Both the position numbers and the translations under genes were made by a program. Positions 3,304 to 34,394 of a stretch of 64,000 nucleotides of DNA are shown here, in pieces. Each line of letters opens with the position of its first letter. The stretch's first letter is position 1. Origin of the DNA: a virus. Under the pieces are notes generated by a model, which worked only from the letters and a program-made list of their open reading frames with translations, searched no databases and was not told where the DNA came from. The stretch spans positions 96,001 through 160,000 of IMG/VR virus record IMGVR_UViG_3300025436_000002; one strand, given 5' to 3'.

Positions 3304-3331
3304 TTAAGGAGTTATTGAAATAATCGGTATA

Positions 3332-3917: not shown

Positions 3918-3933
3918 CATAAGGAGAAGAATA

Positions 3934-4194: not shown

Positions 4195-4197
4195 CAT

Positions 4198-4279
4198 AAT
4201 GTAACGAACCATGCCCGAAGAGATTGACCTATCTTCGGGCATGTGCTATTATAATATGGTAAGATTGATTGAAAGGAGT
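4198..4279 (+). promoter_or_regulatory. stem-loop sigma70-type promoter module
   Basis: 12-bp IR catgcccgaaga/tcttcgggcatg; TTGACC 4224; TG-TATTAT 4247. Confidence 0.8.
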
Positions 4280-4284
4280 GTTAC

Positions 4285-4430
4285 ATGATTAGACCCAAGT
4301 TAACTTATATAACATCTGTCCTCAATCTTACTACCATGTTTCAACTTTACGTATGGATAAGTGTAGAACAGTATCAACCAAGACTAGTATTATCAGTAAA
4401 TATTTAATGACTTTGGAGTTATTAAAATGA
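4285..4430 (+). pseudogene. ELLK-tail remnant
   Basis: The SD-linked ATG at 4285 is out of frame with the tail ISKYLMTLELLK*. Confidence 0.55.
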
Positions 4431-4711
4431 AACCAAAACTATATCCTACACAAAAGATAGAAAATGATGAAGGTATAGAATACATAGCTCTCTCGTACTC
4501 AGGTTCAAGAATATTATACGGGTACTCCTATAATAAGGATGGAAAGCTTGTAGCTCATGATATTAGTAGTAACGGAGTTCACACCTTTATGCCCAGCGGA
4601 AAACTAGATACCGAGCTACAACGAGATAGAATCTTATTTACAAATGTTAAAACTACTAAGTCTAAGAAGAAGATAAAAAAGTTACTAATGATTCGGGAGC
4701 TACTAAGATGA
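4427..4711 (+). CDS. ELLK-tail family small protein
   Basis: EYIALSY...IKKLLMIRELLR*. Confidence 0.85.
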   Translation: MKPKLYPTQKIENDEGIEYIALSYSGSRILYGYSYNKDGKLVAHDISSNGVHTFMPSGKLDTELQRDRILFTNVKTTKSKKKIKKLLMIRELLR

Positions 4712-4965
4712 TAATAATAAAAGATGAGGAGATAATATTAGCTGTAATAAAGCCCATGGACAAGACAGAAGAGCCTTATATATTCTTATACTTCTGGGAT
4801 GGTGGCAGACTTTGTTATTGGGATAACAAAGGGAGGTGGAATCGAAGTTGCCACTCTGAGCTTGATGAGTTGTATGAAGACCTTTCATCATTGAAGATCT
4901 ATGAAATAACAACGGATGAATCTGTAATAAAGAAATATATCATGGCTATGGAGTTACTAAAATGA
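4708..4965 (+). CDS. ELLK-tail family small protein (paralog of 6790)
   Basis: FLYFW....LCYWD; IKKYIMAMELLK*. Confidence 0.85.
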   Translation: MIIIKDEEIILAVIKPMDKTEEPYIFLYFWDGGRLCYWDNKGRWNRSCHSELDELYEDLSSLKIYEITTDESVIKKYIMAMELLK

Positions 4966-5252
4966 ATCCTAATGATCCTATACTAGATTTTAGTCATATA
5001 GAGCTTACTTTGATCTGCTGGGTAGCTATAAAGAATCAAAGTATGGAGCCTCTATATTTCTATGTGGATAAGGACACGGATTTATACTTCTATAACCCAT
5101 GGTATTACACTAAGTTAAGTTTAAATATTTCCCTAGACTTAGCTTATCCGCATGAGTTAAAAGATTATCTGGATGATGGTAACTATATATGGAAATCCGA
5201 TCAGTTAGGGATTGCCAAAAAGTATAGTGTACTACAGGAGTTAATGAAATGA
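4962..5252 (+). CDS. ELLK-tail family small protein
   Basis: AKKYSVLQELMK*. Confidence 0.8.
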   Translation: MNPNDPILDFSHIELTLICWVAIKNQSMEPLYFYVDKDTDLYFYNPWYYTKLSLNISLDLAYPHELKDYLDDGNYIWKSDQLGIAKKYSVLQELMK

Positions 5253-5483
5253 CTAGAGAATACATAGCTCTATCCACAAGAGAAGAAGACGGAAAGTATT
5301 GGTTATACTGGATGAAAGGATCTAAATTAATGTTCTCGGATAGGTGTGACGGTGGAGCACAGTTCAGCCAACTACTAGATTTAAAACAGAATCTTAATAG
5401 TGATAAGGTTAGTGCTATATACTTCGACTAAAGATCCAAAAAAGATAGCAAAGTTTTTAATGATAAGAGAGTTATTAAAATGA
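5249..5483 (+). pseudogene. ELLK-tail family gene, frameshifted
   Basis: The MTREYIALS frame stops at 5431; the tail TKDPKKIAKFLMIRELLK* is in another frame. Confidence 0.7.
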
Positions 5484-5725
5484 ATAAGGAATACGTAGTC
5501 ATAACTTTGAAAAAGAATGGGGATGTAAAATATAGATATTATTATATATCTGGAGAATTGTATTATGATTCCTATGGTAACTATGGTAACTATAACGTTC
5601 TCGGATCTCTTGCTCCGATAAATGATCTTGCAGCAAATCTCGATGATGATACATGCTGGGGTCATGAGACCTTGGTGGGTAATGAGGCTATAAAGTATCT
5701 AATGGTACAAGAGTTAAAAAAATAA
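5480..5725 (+). CDS. ELLK-tail family small protein
   Basis: MNKEYVVIT...AIKYLMVQELKK*. Confidence 0.85.
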   Translation: MNKEYVVITLKKNGDVKYRYYYISGELYYDSYGNYGNYNVLGSLAPINDLAANLDDDTCWGHETLVGNEAIKYLMVQELKK

Positions 5726-5733
5726 TCATTTCC

Positions 5734-5788
5734 CGTCCCTAGGGCGTTTGGATCTATTTGTTACTGGTATTAGTTAAAAATAAAAGGA
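5734..5788 (+). repeat. dispersed ~55-bp intergenic element, copy 2
   Basis: Matches 1697-1750. Confidence 0.8.
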
Positions 5789-5797
5789 GATTAGAGT

Positions 5798-6346
5798 ATG
5801 ACATGTATCGTGGGAATCAAAACAACTGACAATGTTTACATAGGCGGAGATACATTTGGATCAAATGGACATACTGGAGAAAGCTACCTAAGACCTAAGG
5901 TATTTAAAAAAGGTAACATGATTATAGGAGTCTGTGGTAGTTATAGATTAATGCAAATACTGGAGTTCTGTTTAGAGCTACCTAAGAAATACGAAGGCAT
6001 CAGCACAGAGAAGTATTTATATATAGATTTCATTAATGCTGTAAGAACTACTTTAAAAGCAAACGGACTCCTTGCTGTTGATAAGGGTGTTGAATCCATG
6101 GATGGAGGAATATTCTTGATGGGATATGAAGGAGAGTTATACAAAGTACAGCAAGATTTATCAATACTCATGCCTGCTTCTGGATACGCTTCTGTAGGCT
6201 CTGGATGTGACCATGCTAAGGCTAGTCTATTCTCTACGGAGGGACTACTATTGGATCCTAAAGAGAGGATAGTTAAAGCAATAGAATGTGCCAACAACTT
6301 TGTAGTAAGTGTTAACGGTGAGAATAATATAATAAGTTTAATTTAA
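5798..6346 (+). CDS. HslV/proteasome-beta-like Ntn peptidase
   Basis: N-terminal MTCIVG with Thr nucleophile; GGD, KVF, GVCG, YASVGSG. Confidence 0.8.
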   Translation: MTCIVGIKTTDNVYIGGDTFGSNGHTGESYLRPKVFKKGNMIIGVCGSYRLMQILEFCLELPKKYEGISTEKYLYIDFINAVRTTLKANGLLAVDKGVESMDGGIFLMGYEGELYKVQQDLSILMPASGYASVGSGCDHAKASLFSTEGLLLDPKERIVKAIECANNFVVSVNGENNIISLI

Positions 6347-6349
6347 AGT

Positions 6350-6431
6350 AATGTAACAAAGATATTAAGACAGACTTGAAATATAGTCTGTCTTATGTTA
6401 TTCTAAGTAAGTAAGGTTAATTACTAAGGAG
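6350..6431 (+). promoter_or_regulatory. stem-loop sigma70-type promoter module
   Basis: IR taagacagact/agtctgtctta; TTGAAA 6376; TG-TATTCT 6399; gtaaggttaatt leader. Confidence 0.8.
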
Positions 6432-6438
6432 TTACATC

Positions 6439-6612
6439 ATGAGTTTTGAAATAAGTATTGAACCTAGGTGTGGAGTCTATGGAGTCGCTCATGTATTTGA
6501 TAAGACTCGTAACTTAGAGAGAGCTATCGAAAGTTGTGTCCTTAACAATAGAAATGAACTTACAACTATAAAGAAGAAGTACAACTGTAAAGATCATAAG
6601 TGGCAGGCATGA
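6439..6612 (+). CDS. hypothetical protein (57 aa, not in ORF track)
   Basis: AAGGAG SD; ends KKKYNCKDHKWQA*; its 3' end is duplicated at ~3332. Confidence 0.65.
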   Translation: MSFEISIEPRCGVYGVAHVFDKTRNLERAIESCVLNNRNELTTIKKKYNCKDHKWQA

Positions 6613-6692
6613 ATAAAGAGTATATAGCACTAACCTTAGACAAGGGCAAAGTAAGGTACAAATTCTTAATGTCTCAGGAGTTATTAAAATGA
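6609..6692 (+). CDS. 27-aa internally deleted ELLK-tail mini-gene
   Basis: MNKEYIALTLDKGKVRYKFLMSQELLK*. Confidence 0.7.
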   Translation: MNKEYIALTLDKGKVRYKFLMSQELLK

Positions 6693-6789
6693 TATCATAC
6701 GTTAATCCTTATACACCTATTGATGAAGATACTGAATACAAAGGTATATCCTATTCTGGAACAAAGATACCTAAGAGTAGGTATTCTGT

Positions 6790-7020
6790 ATGATTATAAA
6801 AGGGGAAGAGATAATAGCTGCACTCATCAACCCTGAGAGTACAACATGGGCATTCTTATACTTCTGGTCTCATGATAAGTTGTGTTATTGGGATAGTACT
6901 ATGTCATTTAATACTAGCCGATTCAGGACTCTCGAGGGGTTATCTATGGATAACCCTCACTATACATCAGACATGCAAAAGATTAGTAAGTTTTTAATGA
7001 CAAAGGAGTTATTAAAGTGA
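6790..7020 (+). CDS. ELLK-tail family small protein
   Basis: ISKFLMTKELLK*. Confidence 0.85.
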   Translation: MIIKGEEIIAALINPESTTWAFLYFWSHDKLCYWDSTMSFNTSRFRTLEGLSMDNPHYTSDMQKISKFLMTKELLK

Positions 7021-7319
7021 ATAAAACATATGTAGCCATCTTAGATAAATCATATTATGATTGTATTTATGTATTCTATTTCTATTCTAAGAAAGAAGTA
7101 TTAGTACCTTCAGGCGTTCTTATGTATGATTCATATAATAGACATACTAATAGATGTATTGATGGGAATATTTGGAGAGGGTTAGTATTAAAGTTAACTA
7201 GAGAAGCGTGGCTAAGGCAACTAAAACATGACTACAATGCTGACGACAGTACTCTTACTGATATTGACACACAGAATGATGTAGATAAATTTCTTATGGT
7301 AATAGAGTTACTAAAGTAA
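7017..7319 (+). CDS. ELLK-tail family small protein
   Basis: GTGA overlap; VDKFLMVIELLK*. Confidence 0.85.
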   Translation: MNKTYVAILDKSYYDCIYVFYFYSKKEVLVPSGVLMYDSYNRHTNRCIDGNIWRGLVLKLTREAWLRQLKHDYNADDSTLTDIDTQNDVDKFLMVIELLK

Positions 7320-7398
7320 TGTAACAAACATGCCTGCAAAGGATTGAACTCTCTTCTGACATGTGCTAGTATAATTATATAAGATTGAATGTAAGGAG
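7318..7398 (+). promoter_or_regulatory. degenerate stem-loop promoter module
   Basis: GTAAC box; TTGAAC 7344; TG-TAGTAT 7367; residual acatg/catgt arms. Confidence 0.65.
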
Positions 7399-7438
7399 AT
7401 ATTGAAATGGTAGAGAAGAAATTACTAACAAGTTAGGT

Positions 7439-8050
7439 GTGGAATTAAATTTCATATCTTATTTTTTCGTAGGGGATTGTTCCTTGTGGGGAGTGGCCTA
7501 CATATACTTCGATGGCAAAGACATACGAGCCTATAGCCCGAAAAGGGGTACTGCCATGTATGGATCAGACTGTATACTCAGTGCCTATCCTGAGGAATGG
7601 GATTATAGAGAAATAAAGTACATAACATCTTATGGCGTTTCTAAAAAAGAAGTGGAAGATTTTATATCCAATTCTTCCGAAGACCTCGACGAAACTAAAG
7701 AATTCCTAGTAAAGCATGGGATAGTATGTTCGGATACAATAAGAGCTGATCTAGCTAGTCGAATAGGTATAGGTAGAAAATATGTACCTCTCACCATTGA
7801 TGAACTTGTAGATAAGTTATACAGTATCTTAGAGTCAAAGAATGTAGAATTATCTCGAGAAACTGAACTATCCCAAGTATATAATAAAACTGATAAGAGT
7901 CGTCTGGTAGACAGTACTATTGGGAATATACTGTACGAGGATGATTATAACGGATTTAAGAAACTTAGTAACGACTTAGGATGGTTACTAGATTCAGACT
8001 ATGGAAATACATCAGTATGTCTATATACTGATACAAATCTAAACGTATAG
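7439..8050 (+). CDS. hypothetical protein
   Basis: 203-aa ORF. Confidence 0.7.
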   Translation: MELNFISYFFVGDCSLWGVAYIYFDGKDIRAYSPKRGTAMYGSDCILSAYPEEWDYREIKYITSYGVSKKEVEDFISNSSEDLDETKEFLVKHGIVCSDTIRADLASRIGIGRKYVPLTIDELVDKLYSILESKNVELSRETELSQVYNKTDKSRLVDSTIGNILYEDDYNGFKKLSNDLGWLLDSDYGNTSVCLYTDTNLNV

Positions 8051-16396: not shown

Positions 16397-16618
16397 ATGT
16401 TTACGAAGAAAAGGTACTCAGGTATCTTAATTAACAAACTTGATGATTCCGACTTTGTGTACTGTATTTTCCATGGGGAGAGATTGTGCTACTATATAGG
16501 TAGCCATCTCTATAAGTCGGAAAGTACTCTTAAGAAGATGTTGAGTATTGGGGATTATAAGATACTAGAGGGTATGGAATTAGATAAGTACTTAATGACG
16601 GAGGAACTGTTGAAATGA
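16397..16618 (+). CDS. ELLK-tail family small protein (paralog of 16900)
   Basis: YSG.LIN..D..D..YCI; LDKYLMTEELLK*. Confidence 0.85.
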   Translation: MFTKKRYSGILINKLDDSDFVYCIFHGERLCYYIGSHLYKSESTLKKMLSIGDYKILEGMELDKYLMTEELLK

Positions 16619-16851
16619 GTTCTATAAAATATTTAGGCCTAGTGACCCATTTCCCTACAAATACTACTCTACTGTACTACAAACAAGACAGAATTAACTT
16701 AGTTAGAACTACTCAAGGAGAGCCATGGCCATCTGGCTACACTGAAACAGAGTTAGCTAGGGACATGGCGAAATATAATAAAGACTTTCTGTATGTTACG
16801 GACAGATTGGAGATATTAAAAACAATCATGACATGGGAGTTATTGAAATGA
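16615..16851 (+). CDS. ELLK-tail family small protein
   Basis: ILKTIMTWELLK*. Confidence 0.85.
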   Translation: MSSIKYLGLVTHFPTNTTLLYYKQDRINLVRTTQGEPWPSGYTETELARDMAKYNKDFLYVTDRLEILKTIMTWELLK

Positions 16852-16903
16852 AGAAAAGAGGATACTTAATAAATATCTAATGTGCGGAGAGTTATTAAAA
16901 TGA
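16848..16903 (+). pseudogene. near-empty ELLK junction remnant
   Basis: About 52 bp between two junctions; the out-of-frame tail reads LNKYLMCGELLK*. Confidence 0.7.
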
Positions 16904-17121
16904 GTAGACTCACGAAAGGATATTCAGGACTCCTTATTAATAGGTTCGATGAGACTGATTATATCTACTGTATCCATGGCAATAGCCTTTGGTATTACAG
17001 AGATGGAAGTTTAATAAAATCATGTCTTAGTGTAACTGATAAAATGAATAGGGGCGGGTACAAAATATTAAAAGGAAAAGAACTTAATAAGTACCTAATG
17101 ATATCGGAGTTATTAAAATGA
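16900..17121 (+). CDS. ELLK-tail family small protein
   Basis: LNKYLMISELLK*. Confidence 0.85.
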   Translation: MSRLTKGYSGLLINRFDETDYIYCIHGNSLWYYRDGSLIKSCLSVTDKMNRGGYKILKGKELNKYLMISELLK

Positions 17122-17414
17122 CGTATAAAGAATACAGTATCCCTATACACTATTTTAGGGAGGATAGCCCCAAGGATTATTTAAACAAAGTTATTCTAAT
17201 TATAGATAACGGAACGTATACTGTTAGATACTATTATTTGGACCATGTTCTAAAATATTATACTATGTATAAATGCGGTTCTAAATCATGGGGCAGAGTT
17301 GCTATAATACAAAACTTAGATGATATTAGATCTACTAGCCTCTCTCTAGGACATAAGGTACTCGAAGGTTTAGAGCTTGGTAAGTTTCTTATGATGGAGG
17401 AGTTACTAAAATGA
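17118..17414 (+). CDS. ELLK-tail family small protein
   Basis: LGKFLMMEELLK*. Confidence 0.85.
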   Translation: MTYKEYSIPIHYFREDSPKDYLNKVILIIDNGTYTVRYYYLDHVLKYYTMYKCGSKSWGRVAIIQNLDDIRSTSLSLGHKVLEGLELGKFLMMEELLK

Positions 17415-17713
17415 AATTAAGGGTAACTAAGGAAGGAGTGTCTCTGGATTCTCTTACAACTGTACTAGCTATTATTATATCTAACTACAACGGTAATATA
17501 GTATATAACTTCTATTATAAGATAACAAATTTTAATACTATACGTTTAAGTCCTGATCTGGCATTCGATGTCCAGTACGTTCTCAGATCCGATTTTAAGA
17601 GTGTAGAGGATATTGTAGCTAAATTTAAGACCTCTCCTGTAAAGATTGTTACGGGAGCCGACTTAGTCGGAGAGATTAATAAATATTTAATGATACATGA
17701 GTTGATGAAATGA
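17411..17713 (+). CDS. ELLK-tail family small protein
   Basis: INKYLMIHELMK*. Confidence 0.85.
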   Translation: MKLRVTKEGVSLDSLTTVLAIIISNYNGNIVYNFYYKITNFNTIRLSPDLAFDVQYVLRSDFKSVEDIVAKFKTSPVKIVTGADLVGEINKYLMIHELMK

Positions 17714-17958
17714 GTAGAGAATACGTAGCTATATCTATTAAGAATTACTCCGACAGGGATAGGTGCACTATAAAATATTACTGGGAGAGTTATAGCCTCT
17801 GCTACATAATCTCTGATGAATTTGGAACTGTTGAGGAGTATGCCGATACAAGTATATTAATGGAGGAATTAAATAAGGATAAGGAGTCTGGGTTTGAAGT
17901 TATATCTGGTAGGCTTGAGGTTGCAAAATACCTAATGATGCAGGAATTATTGAATTAA
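17710..17958 (+). CDS. ELLK-tail family small protein
   Basis: MSREYVAIS...VAKYLMMQELLN*. Confidence 0.85.
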   Translation: MSREYVAISIKNYSDRDRCTIKYYWESYSLCYIISDEFGTVEEYADTSILMEELNKDKESGFEVISGRLEVAKYLMMQELLN

Positions 17959-17968
17959 CACTGGTTAG

Positions 17969-17980
17969 TTTATATTATAA
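17969..17980 (+). promoter_or_regulatory. putative late promoter TTTATATTATAA
   Basis: About 30 nt upstream of the 18009 start. Confidence 0.6.
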
Positions 17981-18008
17981 GAAGTATTCGTATAAAATTA
18001 TAGGAGGG

Positions 18009-19748
18009 ATGGACATGACATTAAAAATTGAAAATTTAGGGGATATTATTGAAGTTGTATCAGGACTTGGAAACTTTAAGATAGGTGCTCTACTTACGGT
18101 AGATGCTCCTTCAGGATATAGTGAAGATATTATACTCAATGCTATATCAACACATCCAAACTTAGTACTTATCGGAGGCACTATTCTAAATACATACACA
18201 TATGATATTAATAAGAATAACATAGTAGACCTAGTAGATGGTATGGATGGATTATCCGCAACCCTAGATGACTTATCTACAACTGTTGACGGCTTATCTA
18301 CAACTACGGATGGATTATCTACAACTGTTGATGGATTATCTACAACTGTTGACGGCTTATCTACAACTGTTGACGGCTTATCTACAACTGTTGACGGCTT
18401 AGTTAGTTTCAGTATACCTGGAACTGATAGGTATTATATTGATGGTAATCTAGGAGATGACTCCACCCCAGATGGAAGTTTATCAAAGCCTTATAAAACC
18501 ATTCAAGCATGTTTAGACATGATAGGGCAACCCGTTAACCACATTGATGCTATGAGAACTATCCATATATACGTATCAGGTAAAACTTCAGCTGTGGAAT
18601 CAATATCTGGGGGTCAAACTTTTAGTGGATGTTACTCTGAAAATTTAACAGTTCCGTCGAGAAGGATTACCATATTTGGCTATGGTGTTAAACTAGGTGA
18701 TAATGGAGCTGGCTCTGGCGGTGGAAATATATTAAAAGAGTATTCAACAGGTAGGAGATTTGGTGCAACATCCTCAGAGTTGAGACCGTGTCTTACTTTA
18801 GTCGGATTGGCAGAGGTTAGGGATAATCATCAAAGATTACGTAACGGTTTCCACGTCGGTGGAACTTGTAGAACATCGATTTTAACAAGGAGTTTTGACT
18901 CGATACAAGGTGATGGTAGCAATAAAATAACAGTACATGTAGCAGCAGGTCAATATGCATACCCAATAACTGTATCAAATTATCCAACTACCCCCTACAT
19001 AAGAATATCAGTCCAAAATTCATTGTACTATAGTGGTACTTATGATATAACTGAAAAAATAGATGACACAACTTTTGTTGCCACTAAAGTAAGTGGGACA
19101 AACTTACACACCGAAATTGAAACATCTGGTAGATTTTTTGAGTCAGATAGTGCTGGTGCTTCTGGTTTATCTCATGATTCTTGTTTTTTAAATACTTATA
19201 TGCAAGGTGCTTACACCTGTGATGATGGGACTGTTAACGGTGCAGCTCCAACAGCAGGGACGGAAGTTCTTTATAGTGAAGGTAGTAGATTTTATACAGG
19301 GGTTGAAGGTAGGAGTATTTTATTACAAAGATGGATTAACACTACTTTAGCTGGAGCAAGTATCATTAACTCGTCAGAAGGTATGAACAATTGTTCAATT
19401 AGCGGAACTTTAACCTTATCCACATTTACATATGCAACTGATGACATGGGCTTCATAGCAAATAGATTTAATAGTGCAGTTCCGATAACGGTAAGTAGTG
19501 CGGGTCAAACCGTAAGAATGGATGCAATAACTTACAAATCTTTCAGAGATGCTGGCTGTACATGGGTAACAAATACCCCTACAATAGATTTACTTGGTAG
19601 ATCATGGGATTCGGGAGTTTGGGCTTCTAGACCGACTACATGTTTACAAACTGGTCAAATGTATCTGGATACTGGATTGAAAAAACCTTATTGGTATAAC
19701 TCTGGGGATTCCAGTTGGTACGATGCTACGGGAGTAGTCCACATATAA
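18009..19748 (+). CDS. putative virion fibre/adhesin-like protein
   Basis: Heptad repeat LSTTVDG; YYIDGNLGDD...DGSLSKPYKTIQA motif typical of beta-helix N-termini; fibre-like C-terminus GQMYLDT...PYWY...W.DATG; G/S/T-rich. Confidence 0.65.
   Translation: MDMTLKIENLGDIIEVVSGLGNFKIGALLTVDAPSGYSEDIILNAISTHPNLVLIGGTILNTYTYDINKNNIVDLVDGMDGLSATLDDLSTTVDGLSTTTDGLSTTVDGLSTTVDGLSTTVDGLSTTVDGLVSFSIPGTDRYYIDGNLGDDSTPDGSLSKPYKTIQACLDMIGQPVNHIDAMRTIHIYVSGKTSAVESISGGQTFSGCYSENLTVPSRRITIFGYGVKLGDNGAGSGGGNILKEYSTGRRFGATSSELRPCLTLVGLAEVRDNHQRLRNGFHVGGTCRTSILTRSFDSIQGDGSNKITVHVAAGQYAYPITVSNYPTTPYIRISVQNSLYYSGTYDITEKIDDTTFVATKVSGTNLHTEIETSGRFFESDSAGASGLSHDSCFLNTYMQGAYTCDDGTVNGAAPTAGTEVLYSEGSRFYTGVEGRSILLQRWINTTLAGASIINSSEGMNNCSISGTLTLSTFTYATDDMGFIANRFNSAVPITVSSAGQTVRMDAITYKSFRDAGCTWVTNTPTIDLLGRSWDSGVWASRPTTCLQTGQMYLDTGLKKPYWYNSGDSSWYDATGVVHI
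18252..18401 (+). repeat. 21-bp tandem coding repeat (about 7 units)
   Basis: ttatctacaactgttga(c/t)gg(c/a). Confidence 0.9.
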
Positions 19749-19777
19749 CTGTTAACTAGTACACGTTACAAACGTCG

Positions 19778-19789
19778 TTTATATTATAA
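19778..19789 (+). promoter_or_regulatory. putative late promoter TTTATATTATAA
   Basis: Upstream of 19835. Confidence 0.6.
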
Positions 19790-19834
19790 CTAGGTATTCA
19801 GTGTAGAATACCACAATTTAGAAAGAGGTTAACC

Positions 19835-20422
19835 TTGGTATTACAAATCAAAAACACGAGTCTTTCAGAAGTTATTGTATCAGGTCTTAGTATTTCCATT
19901 GATGCAAGTGCTACAGTATCCGCTCCATTCTATGCACCTTATGTTAGAAAAACAGTTCAAGATGCCATAGTCGGCTATCCAACATTGTCTATGGTTGCAC
20001 TAGCAGCAGGTTCTCCGACTCAAATTAAAAACCATGACTTAGTACATGCGGTGACTGTTGTTGAACTTAACAATCTTGTTATAACTGCGGATACTACTGT
20101 TGTTGTTCCTTTGAGTGAGGTTGAACTTACTGAGTCTCAAATTGTAGCTGCTATCAGACCTTTCCCAGAGTTGGAACTATTAGGTAGCACTATGTTGACA
20201 GTTGAAATTCCAACACAAGCTTTTGACATCACTAACCCTGTTATCCTTGGCGACATGTTTGAGGATGTCAATACAATCTTAGAAACTATCGAAGCTAACG
20301 ATGCTGCTGCCACGGTAGCAATAGCAGATTGCCTAGTTAAAAATGGTTTCAATGATACATTCGTTACCGCTGGTGGAAAAACAGTTACAGTTGTTGATGG
20401 TCAAATAATCAGTATAATCTAA
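19835..20422 (+). CDS. putative virion structural protein
   Basis: TTG start after GAGGT; A/V/T-rich; C-terminal GKTVTVVDGQI; segments resemble the N-terminus of 18009. Confidence 0.6.
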   Translation: MVLQIKNTSLSEVIVSGLSISIDASATVSAPFYAPYVRKTVQDAIVGYPTLSMVALAAGSPTQIKNHDLVHAVTVVELNNLVITADTTVVVPLSEVELTESQIVAAIRPFPELELLGSTMLTVEIPTQAFDITNPVILGDMFEDVNTILETIEANDAAATVAIADCLVKNGFNDTFVTAGGKTVTVVDGQIISII

Positions 20423-20424
20423 TC

Positions 20425-20490
20425 CGTAACAATAACTTAATAAACATTATAAAGGGGACTTGTAAAAGAGTCCTCTTTATGTTATACTAA
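20425..20490 (+). promoter_or_regulatory. stem-loop sigma70-type promoter module
   Basis: IR ataaaggggactt/gagtcctctttat; TTGTAA 20460; TG-TATACT 20483. Confidence 0.8.
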
Positions 20491-20523
20491 ATTTGTAAAG
20501 TTATTTAAAAGAAGGGCTAAAAT

Positions 20524-20865
20524 ATGTTAGTAAAAGTAAAAGCACGTTTAAAAAAGAATCCTAAGTATAGAGTTGACGAACCTATATCATACTACGGATA
20601 TCCTCAGTACATCCAGATACTGTCCGATAGTGTTATAGATTCTGAGGAAACTACCAATATATTCAAAGCTGTTGATGACTTTATAAGTAGGGATGTGGCA
20701 CACGACCGAATATTGAACTACCTCAATCAAGAGGGGACTGATAACATATCTCGTTCAGTACTCTTAACTCTTGAAGTGTTTTACGTATATACTTCGGGTA
20801 CTCAGTATTACAAACCTCATGGAAGTATTGACGTAGTTAATATAAAAGATATTAAGTTAATTTAA
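20524..20865 (+). CDS. hypothetical protein
   Basis: ORF directly after the promoter. Confidence 0.7.
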   Translation: MLVKVKARLKKNPKYRVDEPISYYGYPQYIQILSDSVIDSEETTNIFKAVDDFISRDVAHDRILNYLNQEGTDNISRSVLLTLEVFYVYTSGTQYYKPHGSIDVVNIKDIKLI

Positions 20866-21056
20866 GAAAGGTTTCTGAGATGGATTATGATTTAAAGAAA
20901 GCTAACGAACGGATAGTTGAACTCGAGAGTTTTATACGGGATTTAAAAAGGGCTATGTCTAATAGTTATTCAACATCTTATACAACTTGTAGTAAGTGTA
21001 GCAAACCTACCGAGAGGAGATATATTTGCTGTAACTACGGTTATGGGGGAGAATAG

Positions 21057-21305
21057 GTGTACATAATAGGTAAGGCTACAGTACTGAAGATAGCGATATG
21101 TAAAGATACAAAGGTAGCTTACATGATTAGAGGGTGGGGATGTCTATGTCAGTCTAATATAGATTATGATTGTGTAGAAACTACTACTGGGAGTGTAAGG
21201 CGTATTACTGAAAAAACTGCCTTCAATATAGACCTTGACAACTACGATGTTCTTGAAGGGACTGGTATGAATAAATATTTAATGGCATTGGAGTTAAGTA
21301 AGTGA
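21057..21305 (+). CDS. ELLK-tail family small protein
   Basis: MNKYLMALELSK*. Confidence 0.8.
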   Translation: MYIIGKATVLKIAICKDTKVAYMIRGWGCLCQSNIDYDCVETTTGSVRRITEKTAFNIDLDNYDVLEGTGMNKYLMALELSK

Positions 21306-21490
21306 GAATAGAAATTGGAAATAGGGTTAGACTTCTCTATCAATCTGGGTATTATGAAGTCCTAGGATACACAGTTGAAGGTTGTATTAGATGTAAGAAA
21401 ATAGCTAACGACGAGGGTCTTTGGGTAGCTCCAGAAATTGAGATAGTTAATCCTAGTCATCTAGGTAATGTGTTAGACATGTTAGGGTAG
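21302..21490 (+). CDS. small SH3/KOW-like hypothetical protein
   Basis: IEIGNRVRL pattern; GTGA-coupled. Confidence 0.55.
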   Translation: MRIEIGNRVRLLYQSGYYEVLGYTVEGCIRCKKIANDEGLWVAPEIEIVNPSHLGNVLDMLG

Positions 21491-21507
21491 GGGGAGGTGA
21501 AAGTCTC

Positions 21508-21649
21508 ATGAGTTATGTAGAAGATGTCTTAGAGTTAGTAAGATTTACGGAGTTAGTTAACGATAATTCCATGGGGGGGTGGGTTGGATATTGAAATACT
21601 CTTGAAGGAATATAGGAAATATCTTATGATGAAGGAACTATTAAAATGA
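21508..21649 (+). pseudogene. ELLK-tail gene frameshifted at a G7 run
   Basis: Removing one G at 21573-21579 gives ...LKEYRKYLMMKELLK*. Confidence 0.6.
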
Positions 21650-21882
21650 AGATGGTAGCTGTAATGACAGATGTTCAGAATCCTGAGATAATTTGTTATT
21701 ATTTTGAAAAAGAAGGATACAAGTATCTATTACTTGAGGATAATGGGGAAAACTGGGTGCAGTACACGGGGCATACTCTAGAAACATTACTAGACACGGG
21801 AAGGTTGTCTAATAATTTTAATGTCACAACTGATTCCTTAGAAATTAACAAACATTCCATGCTGAGAGAGCTGTCGAAGTAG
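21646..21882 (+). CDS. ELLK-tail family small protein
   Basis: INKHSMLRELSK*. Confidence 0.8.
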   Translation: MKMVAVMTDVQNPEIICYYFEKEGYKYLLLEDNGENWVQYTGHTLETLLDTGRLSNNFNVTTDSLEINKHSMLRELSK

Positions 21883-21908
21883 AATTAAAAGAATACGGGA
21901 GGTAACCT

Positions 21909-22046
21909 TTGAACCAGTCCATGTTGTTTAAAATAAATATTATTTACATATCTCTGTACCTACTGATAGGTCCGTCCATGTTCACTATGCTAATTAGTTT
22001 GTACATTAGCATGTTGTTTATAGTATGCTATAAGGATTCAAAATAG
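21909..22046 (+). CDS. 45-aa hydrophobic peptide (not in ORF track)
   Basis: GGAGGT SD, TTG start, TAG abutting the next ATG. Confidence 0.45.
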   Translation: MNQSMLFKINIIYISLYLLIGPSMFTMLISLYISMLFIVCYKDSK

Positions 22047-22433
22047 ATGAAAAAAATTATAATATCTTTAGCATTGATGCTACTGACATGCATGCCCGTG
22101 TTAGCTCAGGATTGGCAAGAGGCAGGGTTCCAACAGTATACTAAGATAATAAAATATCATTTTCCGATAGTCGAATACTGGATGATGTCCTTCCCATTCG
22201 AACCTGAATTTATAGGGGATGTGCAGGTAGGCTCAAGGCTCATGTACACTAAGACAAATTGTGACGAAAGGAGTTTAGCAGTACTTAGATATATTATATA
22301 TGACTTAGATAGAAATATCATAGCTAACTATGAGGTATCCTCAGAGGAGAAACTAAATCCAAGTTATCAAGATCTTGTTGAAGGTTCTATCGGAGAGCAG
22401 GCATGGAAATCTGTTTGTGATGGAGAAGACTAG
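22047..22433 (+). CDS. secreted protein, surface-adhesin-E-like
   Basis: Signal peptide MKKIIISLALMLLTCMPVLA; NC...YD..; GSIGEQAWKSVC. Confidence 0.55.
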   Translation: MKKIIISLALMLLTCMPVLAQDWQEAGFQQYTKIIKYHFPIVEYWMMSFPFEPEFIGDVQVGSRLMYTKTNCDERSLAVLRYIIYDLDRNIIANYEVSSEEKLNPSYQDLVEGSIGEQAWKSVCDGED

Positions 22434-22526
22434 TTGTAAAGTTTTATTTAGAATACTTGTAGTTAAGGTGTACAATTTTTAGTTAATATGATATGATGTT
22501 TGAGTAGATTATAAGGAGACAAGAAT

Positions 22527-23054
22527 ATGTTAAAGATTACCACAGTAGGTGAAGCACTTAAAGCAGTAGAGCATTGTTGTTTTGCTTTAGAATTTGTAGA
22601 GGACTCGTTGCAAACGTATGAGATGTGTTTATCCGCAGTCGATAGTGATGGATATAATATACAATGAGTAAAGGAAGAATTTAAAACGCATGAAATGTAC
22701 GTAACGGCTTTAAAGTCTCAAGGAGGAGCTATAGAATGTATAGATGATAAATTTATAACTGAGGAATTTTGTATCTTAGCGGTTCAGTATTGTGATCATG
22801 CTCTAAATCTTATAAGTAAGAAGAACCAAACTGAGAAAGTTTATATGGCAGCAGTTACGGAATATGGAGATTCCCTCGAATATGTAAAAAAGCAAACCTT
22901 AGAAATCTGTATTGAGGCAGTAAAACAAGATGAAGATGCTTTTGAGTATGTTGAAGCTAAATTCAAAAAGCCAGTGTCCAAGTTCCTAGAAACTTATGTT
23001 AGAAATAATAAACCTATTACTTATAGGCAATGTAAAGATATTTACATCTACTAG
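22527..23054 (+). pseudogene. DUF4116-like repeat protein with an in-frame TGA
   Basis: SD-linked ATG at 22527; TGA at 22665; repeats T.E.C..AV.....LEYV lie on both sides of the stop. Confidence 0.7.
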
Positions 23055-23087
23055 TAACAGTGTGCAGAATATAAGGAGACAACTAAT

Positions 23088-23357
23088 ATGAATGTTTTTG
23101 ATTTAATAGGCGGAGTCCCCCAAGATCCAAAACCTCCAGTTACCCACTTATCCATGTATACTGAAGAAACTGAGTCTATATTAACTTCAAGTACTGAAAC
23201 GTGGTATAAGCTTAAAGCAGGTAGCATGACGCTGTTCGAATCTCAGGATTTGAAAGAGGCCGAGGAATACGCTGAGTTCAATAAGAACGTACTCTTTATA
23301 GATAACGTAAAGCTGTATAAGAAAGTAACTACTAAGGAACTAATAAAAGAATACTAA
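23088..23357 (+). CDS. hypothetical protein
   Basis: AAGGAG SD. Confidence 0.7.
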   Translation: MNVFDLIGGVPQDPKPPVTHLSMYTEETESILTSSTETWYKLKAGSMTLFESQDLKEAEEYAEFNKNVLFIDNVKLYKKVTTKELIKEY

Positions 23358-23468
23358 ATACTAGGAAGATTCAGTGTATTTTATATTAAGAATATTAGGA
23401 ATAGCTATTATTAATAAAGATGATAATCTTGAGATAGGTACTAAGACTAAGAAAGGTTTTTGGTAAGC

Positions 23469-23822
23469 ATGGCTAAAAAACTAGAAATAAGTATAGGGGA
23501 TATAATTACTATTGCTAGAGCTACTGGATATTTTAGATACGTAGCTAGTTTACCTAGAATAGGTTATCACGATGTAAAAGTATTTGTCAAAGAACTTGGA
23601 TCTGGAGGGAAAATTGACTCTTCTGATTATAAAGTGGAGAGGATCGGCTTTGTGGGGATAGCTAAAGTATCCAAAGAGTCTCTTGATGAGATGTATAATA
23701 AAGAATTAAAGAGTATTGAAGGACGTAAGATTAGACTCGAAGCTAAGAAAAAAATATTATCAAAATTGACTAAACCCTCTGAGATAGCTAAATTCTTAAT
23801 GACAAGGGAACTATTGAAATGA
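23469..23822 (+). CDS. SH3-like plus coiled-coil protein bearing the ELLK tail
   Basis: ISIGDIIT...IAKFLMTRELLK*. Confidence 0.75.
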   Translation: MAKKLEISIGDIITIARATGYFRYVASLPRIGYHDVKVFVKELGSGGKIDSSDYKVERIGFVGIAKVSKESLDEMYNKELKSIEGRKIRLEAKKKILSKLTKPSEIAKFLMTRELLK

Positions 23823-24085
23823 AACACGAAGATTATCTTACGGATGATAAAGGACTTATATACTTAGACTCTCTCAAAGCTGAGGGTCTAACCTTTAAAT
23901 ATGTTCCTAAATGGACATCTAAATATAATAGTTATGTGGTATATGACTATGAACCTTTCTGTGCTGATGGATTCTATGTTTCAGTCGATCTTGAAGGGGA
24001 TGAATCCATGGTTAATTATGTAGTATATCTGTGTGATAAAAGAAAAGAAGGTATCGAGAATATCAAGAGGTGCTTTAATGAGTAA
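23819..24085 (+). CDS. hypothetical protein (family with 37103 and 63201)
   Basis: YVVYLCDKRKEGIENI motif. Confidence 0.7.
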   Translation: MKHEDYLTDDKGLIYLDSLKAEGLTFKYVPKWTSKYNSYVVYDYEPFCADGFYVSVDLEGDESMVNYVVYLCDKRKEGIENIKRCFNE

Positions 24086-24323
24086 AGAGTACGTAATTAT
24101 CGCCAAATTTTTTGATGACGGGCCAACACTGGAGTATTTTAGATATCCAGATAATTCTAATGATATTTACTATATGTTTTCAAATTGTACTAATCTAGAA
24201 AGTAGACATCCTTATAGTGTTGATCGTATAGTATGTGATCTTAGTCAAAGGAATACTGTAATGTTGTTAACAAATAAAAAAGATATAGATAAATACCTAA
24301 TGACCAAAGAATTATTAAAATAG
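24078..24323 (+). CDS. ELLK-tail family small protein
   Basis: MSKEYVII...IDKYLMTKELLK*. Confidence 0.85.
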   Translation: MSKEYVIIAKFFDDGPTLEYFRYPDNSNDIYYMFSNCTNLESRHPYSVDRIVCDLSQRNTVMLLTNKKDIDKYLMTKELLK

Positions 24324-24353
24324 ATTGTAAAGTTTCATTTCAATAACCTTACT

Positions 24354-24413
24354 GAGAGTCTTGACGACTCTCTTTTTTTATGCTATCATGTTCTTGTAAG
24401 GTTAAATAAGGAG
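24354..24413 (+). promoter_or_regulatory. overlapping intrinsic terminator and promoter module
   Basis: gagagtc/gactctc hairpin plus T7; TTGACG 24361; TG-TATCAT 24384. Confidence 0.75.
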
Positions 24414-24419
24414 TTAGTC

Positions 24420-24722
24420 ATGAAAGAATATACGGTAGAATTTATAGTCCTAGTAGGGGAAGGTGCAGGTCATGAACACAAGACTATAAGTATTAAAATA
24501 AATGCTGAGGATACGGAGTCTGCATTAGTGATAGCTAAAAGCATGCTATCCATAGAAATTCAATTCAAAGGGGAGTGTGGGTATTTAGCTCCCAATGCTG
24601 AAAAGCTCCATAAATATGAAATAGATTATGACGATTCAAACCCATGTAATGATTGTGAGTTATCTTCTTGTGTAGGCTGTGCTCATTCTGAAACTAATGA
24701 TGATTGGGAAGACTATGACTAA
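24420..24722 (+). CDS. hypothetical protein, Cys-cluster C-terminus
   Basis: AAGGAG SD; CNDC...CVGC. Confidence 0.7.
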   Translation: MKEYTVEFIVLVGEGAGHEHKTISIKINAEDTESALVIAKSMLSIEIQFKGECGYLAPNAEKLHKYEIDYDDSNPCNDCELSSCVGCAHSETNDDWEDYD

Positions 24723-24756
24723 GAACTTTGATACATGTGTAAAAGGAGTTAACTGA

Positions 24757-25011
24757 GTGAGGGAATACATACTTTTTGAAAGGTATTGGAACTACGAACA
24801 TAAATACTACTACGTCGAAGATGAAGTTACCTATTGGGTATATTCTGGAGGAGGTCCTCCTGCTATTTCAGCATGGCAAGGCGAGGCGGATGTTAAAAGG
24901 TTAGTCCGTATTACTAAACTTGATAGTCTTGAAAAGGTACAACCTTATATATTAACTATTGGACATCGTGAAGTGGCTAAGTTATTAATGGAGATAGAAT
25001 TGCTAAAATGA
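24757..25011 (+). CDS. ELLK-tail family small protein
   Basis: VAKLLMEIELLK*. Confidence 0.85.
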   Translation: MREYILFERYWNYEHKYYYVEDEVTYWVYSGGGPPAISAWQGEADVKRLVRITKLDSLEKVQPYILTIGHREVAKLLMEIELLK

Positions 25012-25241
25012 AAAAAGTCTTAGCTCTTATACTTGATATGGAGTCTAATGAGATAATTTGTAGGATAGCTTGTGATACCTATGGAAATACGTTCACTTCG
25101 TTAGGCGGTGTTAATTGGAGATATGCTCAAAAACCTATGTCCTACTACATAAGTTCTGTTAACTTAGGAGAGGGTTATTACGCTGTAACATCTCCAGAGG
25201 GTGTTGATGAGTTACTTATGGTTGAGGAGCTATTAAAATGA
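25008..25241 (+). CDS. ELLK-tail family small protein
   Basis: VDELLMVEELLK*. Confidence 0.85.
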   Translation: MKKVLALILDMESNEIICRIACDTYGNTFTSLGGVNWRYAQKPMSYYISSVNLGEGYYAVTSPEGVDELLMVEELLK

Positions 25242-25507
25242 AAAGAAGGTTTATTTATTTAGGGCATTCCAATACCTACTACCCAGGTGGATCAGGTAAT
25301 ACATGTTACAATAGATATTATTACTTTAGAGACGAAGAGTATACAGTATATCTCTCGGATATTTGTTATCCTACTAAACATAGTCTATCCCGAATATCAT
25401 CAGATCGTCTGAAATGTAGGCTACACGGGGCAGGAGGACATGTCATGTGTAAACGGAGTAAAAAGAGTATATCTAAATTTTTAATGACTAAGGAGTTATC
25501 TAAATGA
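25238..25507 (+). CDS. ELLK-tail family small protein
   Basis: ISKFLMTKELSK*. Confidence 0.85.
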   Translation: MKRRFIYLGHSNTYYPGGSGNTCYNRYYYFRDEEYTVYLSDICYPTKHSLSRISSDRLKCRLHGAGGHVMCKRSKKSISKFLMTKELSK

Positions 25508-25800
25508 CTAAAAAGTATATAGGACTTATTCTAGGGAGGTACAGTAGGTGCGGAGATTTTAATTTCTATTCACCTTCCATGAAGATATACTATGTTGAAA
25601 ATAGAATTTGTTATCAAAGTGTTGTATTTGACGAGATTCCCGTCATGCCAAACCTTTATAATAAAACATTTACTATGGATACAAGTTATGCTAGAGTAGC
25701 ATTTGACTTAATTATAGCTAAAAGACATAGTTGTCTAACAGTCATTACAAACCATGCTGAGATTATAAAATATTTAATGACGGAGGAACTATTAAAGTGA
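25504..25800 (+). CDS. ELLK-tail family small protein
   Basis: MTKKYIGL...IIKYLMTEELLK*. Confidence 0.85.
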   Translation: MTKKYIGLILGRYSRCGDFNFYSPSMKIYYVENRICYQSVVFDEIPVMPNLYNKTFTMDTSYARVAFDLIIAKRHSCLTVITNHAEIIKYLMTEELLK

Positions 25801-25841
25801 AGATTAATAAATTCTTAATGTTAAAGGAGTTATCTAAATGA
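25797..25841 (+). CDS. 14-aa tail-only mini-ORF
   Basis: GTG start; MKINKFLMLKELSK*; coupled at both ends. Confidence 0.65.
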   Translation: MKINKFLMLKELSK

Positions 25842-26026
25842 GGGATATAAATAGAATACCTAGAATACTTAAAAAATTAGAGGAGGTTTGGACAGCTTCT
25901 CCAGATTTGAGATTATTTCAACTACTGACATGGGTTGTTCGAGACTACAGAGGTGACTTATTCTACCTTGAAGACGACGTTGTAGAGGACAACCTTAATG
26001 AAGAGAAGATACGGAGGCAAGTATGA
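25838..26026 (+). CDS. conserved small phage protein
   Basis: MRD..RI..IL..L...W...PDLR..QL...D.FY.ED pattern. Confidence 0.7.
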   Translation: MRDINRIPRILKKLEEVWTASPDLRLFQLLTWVVRDYRGDLFYLEDDVVEDNLNEEKIRRQV

Positions 26027-31027: not shown

Positions 31028-32200
31028 ATGGGAACTGAAATTAAAAGATCATTGGCAAGTATACAAGAGATACTAGACATTCAACCTATATACGGTGCTG
31101 ACATGATAGAAGTAGCAACAGTACTCGGCTGGAATGTTGTAGTAAAGAAAGGAGAGTTTAAAGTCTCTGACAAAGTTGCATACTTTGAAATAGACTCATG
31201 GATTCCAAATAGGGTTGCTCCCTTCCTTACAAAAGAGGGTAAAGAACCCAGTGTATACGAAAATACTAGAGGAGAGAGACTCAGGACTATTAAACTACGC
31301 AAACAGATAAGTCAAGGCTTGATACTCCCATTAGCAAATGTAGGAATGTTTGAACCTATAATAGGTGAGAAGTTACAAGTAGGTTTAGATATAACAGATA
31401 AACTTGGAATTAAACTCTATGAGAAAGAAGTAAAGACTTTCGTAGGAGGAGTCGCTGTAAGCACGGGTAAGTCGTTCCCTTCATTCATACCTAAGACCGA
31501 TCAAGCTCGTGTACAAAACATTTATAATAAATACTCAGAATCCTATGCTGAAGAGACCTTTGAAGAGAGCTTAAAAATGGATGGAAGTTCATGCACAATC
31601 TACTATAAAAGTGGAGTATTCGGAGTTTGTAGCAGAAATGTAGACTTAGAAGATCCAGATAGAGTTATCCCCGTAAGTAAGTTTAAAATATTTCTTAATA
31701 AAATACTTCCTTTCATCTTTAAAAAACCAGTTCAATTTAAAGTAGCTCCTAATAATTTCTGGAAAATAGCTAAGGAAGAAAGACTTCATGAAATACTTCC
31801 TCAAATTTGTAATATGGCTGGAGAAGACTATGCTATCCAAGGGGAACTTGTCGGAGACGGTATAAATGGGAATAGAGATAAGTTTAAAGGTCACTTCCTG
31901 TATGTCTTTGATATCTTTAATATAACTACTGGAAAGTACATGCTCCCAGCTGAACGAAGATCTCTTATAAATAATCTAAATATCACTTTTGGATGTACTC
32001 TAAAACATGTTCCTATAACAAACGAGTCCATTCAACCCTTTAAATTCTCCCTAAACGGGTTATTAATTGAGGCAGGAGGTTCTGCACTAAATACTAAAAA
32101 TAGGGAGGGAGTTGTTTACAAATCCAATAGATATATCGATGGAAATATCTTCTCTTTTAAAGTTATAAATAATAAGTACTTGCTTGAGGAGGAGGATTAA
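31028..32200 (+). CDS. ATP-dependent RNA ligase (DRB0094-type)
   Basis: KMDGSS, QGELVG, FDI, EGVV, FKVIN nucleotidyltransferase motifs; N-terminal OB-like AD.IE.A.V.GW and SQGL. Confidence 0.9.
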   Translation: MGTEIKRSLASIQEILDIQPIYGADMIEVATVLGWNVVVKKGEFKVSDKVAYFEIDSWIPNRVAPFLTKEGKEPSVYENTRGERLRTIKLRKQISQGLILPLANVGMFEPIIGEKLQVGLDITDKLGIKLYEKEVKTFVGGVAVSTGKSFPSFIPKTDQARVQNIYNKYSESYAEETFEESLKMDGSSCTIYYKSGVFGVCSRNVDLEDPDRVIPVSKFKIFLNKILPFIFKKPVQFKVAPNNFWKIAKEERLHEILPQICNMAGEDYAIQGELVGDGINGNRDKFKGHFLYVFDIFNITTGKYMLPAERRSLINNLNITFGCTLKHVPITNESIQPFKFSLNGLLIEAGGSALNTKNREGVVYKSNRYIDGNIFSFKVINNKYLLEEED

Positions 32201-33098: not shown

Positions 33099-33448
33099 CA
33101 ATGATACAAAGAATGAGCATTGAACAACTTAGAAAAGAGCTAGATCTTATAGACCAGTCTATTCGGGATAAGGAACTGCAACGTAAGGAAGTAGATAAGG
33201 AACTCTACATGAAAGTGTACGGCTTTGAGGTTGGGGATATCGTAGTATATGAAGGTATTGAAGGCGTTATAGGTTTCGTATCTGAAGGTACTCGGGTATC
33301 CCCCGTACTCTATAAAAGGAATAAAAACGGAGAGTTCTCTAAAAAATACACTATCGTCTGTATATGTAATTGGGGTAATCGTAGGGATGATTCATTTAAA
33401 GTTATAGGCAAACAATTATCTCTCATAGGAGTAGATTATGGAAATTGA
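33095..33448 (+). CDS. hypothetical protein
   Basis: Coiled coil plus FEVGDIV; ATGA overlap. Confidence 0.7.
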   Translation: MTMIQRMSIEQLRKELDLIDQSIRDKELQRKEVDKELYMKVYGFEVGDIVVYEGIEGVIGFVSEGTRVSPVLYKRNKNGEFSKKYTIVCICNWGNRRDDSFKVIGKQLSLIGVDYGN

Positions 33449-34394
33449 AACCTCCTCAAATTGTGGAATATATAAGATAACAAACCTACTGCCTGATGCT
33501 GAAACAGGCATTCTTAAAGTACATATTGGAAGTTCAATAGATTTACGTGGTAGGCGAAAATATCACTTTAGTAAATTGGACACCTGTAAACATAAGAATG
33601 CCTATCTACAAAATGCCTATAATAAGATTAAGGATAGCTACGGAGATGACAGAGTCAAAGAATATTTTAAATGGGAAATACTTGAGGAGATAGAAAGTAA
33701 CCCTTGTAAGTTAGAATTAAGGGAAACCATACTCTCCCTAGAACAATCTTACCTTGATAAATATATCTTGGAGGGCAGTCTAAATCTAGATCGAGATAGA
33801 TGTTATAACATGTGTCCTAACGCAAGTAATAGGCTAGGTCATATTGTCTCGGAAGAGACGAGATTAAAAATAGGTCTAAGTAGTCTTGGTAGAAAGTATC
33901 CTTTAAGACATAGAACTTACACCCCAGAGCATAGAAAGGCTATGAGTGATCTATTTAAGGGTAGAACGGTCAGTCCTGAGTGGAGGACTAAGATATCTAA
34001 AAGTCTCCTAGGTAGAAAACATTCTGAGGAGACTAAATTAAAAATGAGTTTAAATAACAGAAGTAAAGACACTGAAGTTCGAAATAAGATGAGTATGTCC
34101 GCTAAAAGAAATATGACGGAAGCTAAGAAGCAGTATTTAAGAGATATAAATGTGGGTAAAAAAGCTTCCGAAGAGGCTATTCTAAACATGAGACTATCTC
34201 ATAAAAATAAGAGGGGAGTTCTGAATCTAACAACTGGAGAATATTTCGAGAGTTTAGCTGATGCAGCTCGACATTACAATCTTAAACGACCCCACACTAT
34301 CTGTGAAGTATGTAAGAATAAGATTGGAAGGAAGACTTATGGGGGATTCAGATGGGCATACGCAGATATTTTAAAGGAGATTAACTATGGGTAA
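33438..34394 (+). CDS. GIY-YIG homing endonuclease with NUMOD3/NUMOD1 repeats
   Basis: GIYKITN...HIGSS, H.N..LQ.A, EQ.Y, YN; repeats HSEETKLKMS; F.SLADAAR. Confidence 0.85.
   Translation: MEIETSSNCGIYKITNLLPDAETGILKVHIGSSIDLRGRRKYHFSKLDTCKHKNAYLQNAYNKIKDSYGDDRVKEYFKWEILEEIESNPCKLELRETILSLEQSYLDKYILEGSLNLDRDRCYNMCPNASNRLGHIVSEETRLKIGLSSLGRKYPLRHRTYTPEHRKAMSDLFKGRTVSPEWRTKISKSLLGRKHSEETKLKMSLNNRSKDTEVRNKMSMSAKRNMTEAKKQYLRDINVGKKASEEAILNMRLSHKNKRGVLNLTTGEYFESLADAARHYNLKRPHTICEVCKNKIGRKTYGGFRWAYADILKEINYG

Follow-up and report, generated by a model that had tools for sequence, protein, structure and literature searches.

The 64,000-nucleotide (nt) stretch of DNA analyzed here (the window; bases 96001-160000 of the 170.2-kb virus record IMGVR_UViG_3300025436_000002 from IMG/VR, 34% G+C) carries a tandem array of small open reading frames (ORFs) that end in the same short C-terminal tail. 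Among the intact genes lie several degenerate copies, the stubs, the smallest of which (25797-25841) is a 14-codon ORF consisting of the tail only. A sequence-only reading of this DNA had interpreted such copies as empty cassettes, in which the junction between two genes persists as a unit after its cargo is lost. We arrive at a different reading: with a probability of about 0.8, the stubs are decayed members of the protein family that fills the array, and their tails are kept as a translation relay for the next gene. The junction is the coding 3' end of this protein family, conserved at the level of amino acids, and not an autonomous unit; nor are the stubs clean empty slots, as pieces of family heads and bodies are kept in them and deletions between short repeats explain their form.

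The record encodes portal-like, tail-fibre and terminase-like proteins, a DNA polymerase and a helicase, with nearly all genes on the + strand, and therefore represents a large tailed phage. Nucleotide searches of GenBank phages gave no match to it. Scanning with a 36-nt consensus of the tail identified 61 copies on the + strand (≤10 mismatches) between 89.6 and 132.6 kb of the genome, with a single copy on the - strand and 0-1 in shuffled sequences, and a peptide-level scan gave 71 on the + strand but none on the - strand. The window part of the array spans 1-37043 (+); the array begins ∼6.4 kb before the window, and outlying copies end at 47372 and 52639. Altogether it comprises ∼70 copies, or roughly a quarter of the genome, and ∼65 intact genes of 57 to 145 amino acids (aa) that follow one another in tandem on one strand.

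All tail copies are in register with a stop codon and read K-[YF]-L-M-x-x-E-L-L-K-stop. The tail makes up the last 10 to 13 codons of the family genes and encodes a conserved C-terminal helix. Its codons vary at synonymous positions: the Lys at -10 is AAA in 29 copies and AAG in 33, both TAT and TAC occur for the Tyr, and four to five codons for the leucines. The motif is also retained in 21 tails that end in TAA or TAG and lack an overlapping start. Because synonymous sites vary and the 21 uncoupled tails keep the motif, the tail is conserved as amino acids and not as bases.

The tail-bearing ORFs align over their full length and share a first strand with the pattern M-x-[RK]-E-Y-[IV]-A-L (the family head), an aromatic second strand, a short helix and the terminal helix. 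A profile that lacks the last 20 to 22 residues still finds held-out members, and its matches are limited to ORFs of the array region. In a leave-one-out analysis of the tail-less bodies, 10 of 55 were recognized at E<1e-3; since so few are recognized, the bodies are highly diverged, and some may be unrelated. A profile search of 1.84 billion representative proteins returned 72 matches, 41 of them foreign and with the same architecture of head, body and tail. The AlphaFold2 model has a β-β-β-α-β-α topology (mean predicted local distance difference test score, pLDDT, of 77); the tail forms the last helix of this small α/β fold (pLDDT 86-90). Searches of Pfam and PHROGs with ten family members gave no match, Foldseek found no convincing match for the fold in PDB, a search of BFVD gave none either, a wide VIA-align comparison with PDB yielded nothing convincing (best Z 3.9), and Atlas gave no usable feature match. 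The family is so far undescribed and is without a Pfam, PHROG or fold relative. An exact-pattern scan of IMG/VR returned one foreign match, on an unrelated contig (L002:7499-7837, - strand): a single 112-aa protein with a tail-like end and an ATGA overlap with the next gene. The resemblance may reflect a distant copy of the motif or may be due to chance.

Overlapping stop and start codons (ATGA or GTGA) are present in 50 of the 71 tails. Codon -5 has G as its third base in 44 of the 50 coupled tails versus 7 of the 21 uncoupled ones (Fisher 9e-6), and GAG is used over GAA in 39 of 49 coupled tails, against a background of 0.41. These codon preferences combine in coupled tails into a GGAG ∼9 nt before the next ATG or GTG, and this Shine-Dalgarno overlay is restricted to the coupled copies (n = 50). 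The intact family member at 25504-25800 (+, 98 aa) is one example, its tail supplying both the Shine-Dalgarno site and the GTGA start of the 14-codon ORF. A promoter scan of 3900-7500 gave no match on any of the six tails located there. Judging from these signals, translation is probably coupled at the junctions. Of the two alternative frames of the tail, one is closed by TAA and/or TGA at the L-M codons, and the other continues in frame into the next gene. Ribosomes in any frame of a stub would therefore either terminate close to the next start, 0-51 nt before it in the cases seen, or read into the next gene. This frame behavior is compatible with re-initiation.

The stubs can be compared with this arrangement of head, body and tail. 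The 14-codon ORF at 25797-25841 (+; GTG start, tail in frame, followed by its stop) is intact, as the sequence-only reading had stated; it forms a GTGA with the stop of 25504-25800 and an ATGA with the start of 25838-26026. That reading also correctly described 16848-16903 (+) as running from junction to junction with the tail out of frame. Comparison of its DNA with the neighboring heads resolves it into a family head of ∼9 codons and a tail in another frame: the ATG overlaps the stop of 16615-16851, the frame continues for 10 codons to a TAA inside the tail (16878-16880, 19 nt before the ATG at 16900), and the TGA of the tail overlaps the ATG of 16900-17121. For the third proposed remnant, 4285-4430 (+), the tail is indeed out of frame, but the 5' side is no junction, as it holds a hairpin, a sigma-70-like promoter (TTGACC-17-TATTAT) and a Shine-Dalgarno site of its own (AAGGAG). 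This is the first ORF of a transcription unit; it has 40 codons and a body that cannot be recognized as family, and it ends at a TAA inside the out-of-frame tail.

Further degenerate copies are present in the array. A 27-codon mini-ORF at 6609-6692 (+) joins a head and strand 2 in frame to a tail (head E 0.011 with the tail-less profile) and has coupled-type overlaps at both ends; it and the 14-codon ORF each have a stop-start overlap with a Shine-Dalgarno site at either end. Its full-length paralog at 3373-3606 (+) carries one extra A in an A7 run (3378-3384) and is gap-free in the independent assembly L020, and the listed ORF 3433-3606 is the C-terminal part of this copy. The full-length member at 5249-5483 (+; body E 3.7e-7 with the tail-less profile) has a single-base frameshift ∼18 codons before the stop, which leaves body and tail in different frames. 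At 21508-21649 (+), a short tail-bearing remnant of ∼47 codons has a frameshift in or near a G7 run (about 21575). The tail-less profile recognizes no family body in this remnant or in 4285-4430, and no body remains in 25797-25841. Finally, a half tail at 3304-3323 (+), consisting of the last six codons and a TAA, directly follows the stop of 3031-3303 and has no start after it. The half tail fits the relay interpretation, because no start follows and nothing depends on a whole tail. We had considered that the disruptions cluster near the tail (4-5 late cases), and this idea was dropped in view of the early frameshift in 3373-3606.

Several freshwater metagenome assemblies hold near-identical contigs (99.3-100%), and in several independent ones the copies at 4285-4430, 16848-16903, 25797-25841, 3373-3606, 5249-5483 and 6609-6692 are recovered gap-free at 99.3-100% identity. 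These contigs of the same phage did not extend to 21508-21649, and the assembly check refers to the other six. These six degenerate copies are not assembly errors, because they are gap-free in independent assemblies. An origin of the stubs in assembly or sequencing errors, for which one could cite the two frameshifts in homopolymer runs (A7 and G7), is therefore very hard to sustain in the face of the same gap-free copies from several samples and pipelines. The same very low standing applies to the idea that the junction is conserved as an RNA hairpin or processing site. A 9-bp AU-rich stem with GGA in its loop can be drawn, and 77% of its cells are paired versus 34-55% in slid controls, but substitutions in the stem disrupt pairing (C-A, A-C, U-U) and are not matched by compensatory doubles, the mean minimum free energy z of the junction is -0.6, and every copy of the motif has a stop codon in frame. 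The hairpin was consequently rejected.

Two of the stubs can be related to short direct repeats. The segment 6560-6672 is ∼88% identical to 3325-3437, a stretch that takes in 42 nt from the end of an upstream gene, the start that overlaps it, the head and strand 2. Relative to 3373-3606, the mini-ORF at 6609-6692 lacks ∼165 nt between imperfect 12-nt direct repeats, the missing stretch being that between AAATACTTTATG and AAGTTCTTAATG of the full copy, and at the junction the strand-2 codons for K-Y/F-F/L-M pass directly into the tail codons for K-F-L-M. The same repeat pair is found in a full-length homolog from a relative (P0021, on L018). The opening nine codons of 16848-16903 are similar to the heads of 16397-16618 and 16900-17121, and the 9-mer TTAATAAAT encodes L-I-N in the head and L-N-K in the tail, in different frames; deletion between two copies of TTAATAAAT in different frames therefore accounts for the out-of-frame stub. 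The process can also be seen within the population. A 24-nt in-frame deletion flanked by TGGGAT direct repeats is polymorphic among assemblies of the same phage (window 4708-4965; L021, L022 and L023) and gives 85-aa and 77-aa forms of one family gene, so that short-repeat deletion operates in the population. Frameshifts and stops occur in diverged contigs too, in genes that are otherwise full: two of three genes on L018 have a frameshift inside the tail, and one on L041 has an in-frame TAG 14 codons before the stop. The region at 3304-3376 is a patchwork: behind the half tail come 42 nt that repeat the 3' end of a 6439-6612-like gene, and then the coupled start of 3373-3606. Taken with 6560-6692, the patchwork indicates a segmental duplication.

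We propose that the stubs formed by deletions between short direct repeats of heads or strand 2 and tails, or by single-base frameshifts. Codons for K-Y/F and for L-N-K recur in heads or strand 2 and in tails and would supply the repeats. Loss of the last ∼20-35 nt of a gene would strip its neighbor of the ribosome-binding site and the coupled start, and deletions of this kind would be lost. The 14- and 27-residue peptides would then be by-products of the translation relay and not selected products. In a separate process, the near-identical tails act as recombination points between related phages, through which whole genes are shuffled.

We also considered that 25797-25841 and 6609-6692 could be functional micro-proteins, free C-terminal helices that compete with, or modulate, the tail targets of the ∼65 proteins; the sequence-only reading had likewise suggested that the 14-mer acts as a competitor peptide. 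Both ORFs are intact and have Shine-Dalgarno sites as well as start and stop overlaps, and none of the assemblies seen differs in either of them (for 25797-25841, 7 contigs of other samples); no other part of the family is as conserved as the tail. However, these assemblies represent one near-clonal population, and identity among them is thus uninformative on selection. Only two of the six short or tail-frameshifted copies have the tail in frame (25797-25841 and 6609-6692), which is the neutral one-third; in the four comparable remnants at 16848-16903, 4285-4430, 5249-5483 and 21508-21649 it is out of frame. In addition, 6609-6692 arose from a paralog by a simple deletion between repeats, the tail has no known partner, and AlphaFold2 places it as the terminal helix of a fold and not as a disordered tag. 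We regard a peptide function as improbable, and the competitor proposal found no support.

Similar arrays occur in diverged contigs from the same bog lakes, and comparison with these bears on the proposal that the junction is a site of recombination. Homology of high identity starts or ends inside tails at w16887, w10481, w-1019 and w-2015 (window numbering). On L034 and L044, the ortholog of 16900-17121 is 98.5-100% identical from w16887, inside the tail, onward, and in place of the stub 16848-16903 L034 has a different, complete tail-bearing gene of 58 aa (L034:4024-4200). L037 differs by a clean indel, three genes of the window being absent; the break lies inside a tail on either side, and a single hybrid tail remains. 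On L036 a 97% match stops at the last base of a tail. As these breakpoints fall inside tails, the tails are crossover points, and this part of the earlier proposal stands together with the presence of coupling signals. A search with the tyrosine recombinase profile PF00589 gave no match in the 170-kb record (estimated to be 90% complete), while 14 of 14 control genomes matched; because no integrase is present, the exchange looks like homologous crossover between repeats. The expectation that relatives carry a full gene at the stub sites was borne out at 16848, by the 58-aa gene, and at 4285, where L009 and L010 have an ORF of at least 63 aa before the ortholog of 4427-4711. At 25797 a homolog search with 25504-25800 returned only itself, so that no diverged relative covers this site, and an IMG/VR related-locus search with the two proteins flanking the 14-codon ORF returned nothing.

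These exchanges raise the alternative that the array is an embedded cassette system, in which the tail is a selected, portable C-terminal tag, a docking helix that at the same time provides the ribosome-binding site and start and the crossover site. Such a system would capture arbitrary DNA, including fragments of host enzymes, as tagged early proteins, and the stubs would be empty or emptied slots, the tail-only ORFs possibly giving free tag peptides. The breakpoints inside tails, including those of the three-gene indel with its single hybrid tail, would fit, as would the exchange of the stub 16848-16903 for a different 58-aa gene and the many bodies without detectable homology. Two gene fusions in relatives would fit as well: a fragment of adenylosuccinate synthetase (PurA) in frame with a tail on L009:1-192 and L010:1-133, at the position of 4285-4430 (PF00709, E 5.5e-15), and a shikimate-kinase-type C-terminus in frame with a tail on L033:913-1131 (- strand; PF01202, 23.3 bits). 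However, these enzyme-tail fusions are equally explained as deletion products, and from the fusions themselves deletion and capture into a tagged slot cannot be separated. Several observations are difficult to reconcile with a cassette system. Conservation is by codons and not by bases, the record has no tyrosine recombinase and the repeat no conserved hairpin or covariation, the stubs keep family heads, and a half tail exists. Furthermore, a crossover from tail to tail leaves one tail and not two in tandem. We consider a cassette system of this kind, and with it the view of the stubs as emptied slots, unlikely, if the most credible of the alternatives to decay.

Some results weigh against family decay with a retained relay. 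TTA is used at Leu -3 in 47 of 71 tails and at Leu -8 in 25 of 40 coupled versus 5 of 17 uncoupled tails, which is more uniform than the background; here, base-level constraint beyond the Shine-Dalgarno site cannot be separated from recent common descent. Of all copies, the out-of-frame tail at 4395-4430 deviates least from the base consensus (1 mismatch), which one would not expect of an ancient remnant that is not translated. Even at E<0.05, tail-less bodies were recognized in only 22 of 55 leave-one-out tests, and the unrecognized bodies, together with the enzyme-fragment fusions in relatives, show the tail behaving in part like a portable module. No parent copy of the 14-codon ORF was found within the genome; the last 18 nt of this ORF are identical to the tail of 25238-25507, two genes upstream. 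The searches of the genome also found no parent copy of 4285 or 21508. The 14-codon ORF is assigned to the class of decayed members by analogy.

Several other features of the region were recorded. Elements at 4208-4252 and 6366-6404 each combine a GC-rich hairpin, with a -35-like hexamer in or next to the loop, and a downstream extended -10 (TGnTATTAT/TATTCT). Located apart from the tails, these elements mark the beginning of new transcription units within the array. An RNA ligase is encoded at 31028-32200 and a NUMOD3 homing-endonuclease-like gene lies at 33438-34394, and downstream of the array, at 37448-59155, is a run of large proteins with a match to ART-PolyVal (ADP-ribosyltransferase) and four to Amidoligase_2. 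Elsewhere in the genome (10545-14525; L003), an ORF of 1326 aa has a weakly terminase-large-subunit-like N-terminus and an internal HNH-endonuclease match, compatible with an intein or an inserted homing endonuclease. In another assembly of this phage (L011:1-258), the first 258 nt are 91% identical to the segment after them (compare window 21774-22031), perhaps as a result of tandem duplication or of strain variation adjoining the array. On a diverged contig (L041:2-280), an ORF with three tandem Cys- and Gly-rich repeats of ∼16 residues has a degenerate tail at its end.

On this reading the stubs are products of ordinary gene decay, and the array itself is the unusual and more remarkable object. 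Read as fossils, the stubs record its turnover by short-repeat deletion, frameshift and crossover in tails between co-occurring relatives. A single 36-nt stretch does three jobs, as it encodes a peptide, provides the ribosome-binding site and start of the next gene and serves as a recombination point. If the tail were a docking tag, the array would amount to a natural library of tagged early proteins.

Frameshifts and deletions between short direct repeats are a general way in which tandem multigene families decay. The array resembles them in its deletion endpoints within 6-12-nt direct repeats, its homopolymer frameshifts and its in-frame share of about one-third, but differs in that 3' ends are preferentially kept and double as the translation start of the next gene. 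Translational coupling through ATGA or GTGA overlaps, with the Shine-Dalgarno site inside the upstream gene, is the usual organization of bacterial and phage operons, and with 50 of 71 tails ending in A/GTGA and GGAG ∼9 nt upstream the array conforms to it. Unlike in usual coupled operons, the ∼36 nt concerned are repeated ∼70 times and also encode a conserved peptide, and ORFs of 14 and 27 codons are interposed between two such overlaps as putative relays. Integron arrays (attC, IntI) similarly consist of small, mostly promoterless genes with a repeated separator and a content that varies among relatives; here, in contrast, there is no integrase, the repeat is coding and has no attC-like inverted repeat with covariation, and the exchange is of the homologous type.

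A further close parallel is with the promoter-early stem-loop (PeSL) cassettes of T4-type phages, which are intergenic and combine a sigma-70-type promoter with a terminator hairpin (Arbiol et al. 2010, PMC2839356; Comeau et al. 2014, PMC4122927). As with PeSLs, short, near-identical borders in many copies delimit small non-essential genes in a hyperplastic early region (PMC2839356; PMC4122927), and recombination between copies, here at the tails, causes close relatives to differ by the loss, gain or replacement of whole genes. The tail repeat differs from a PeSL in that it is not intergenic but consists of coding sequence (the C-terminal helix), a Shine-Dalgarno site and an overlapping start, and in having no promoter match on the six scanned tails and no supported stem-loop. 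PeSL-like composites of hairpin and promoter do occur in the window, at the two sites described above (4208-4252 and 6366-6404), separate from the tails. The tail can accordingly be described as a coding-sequence analogue of the intergenic PeSL cassettes.

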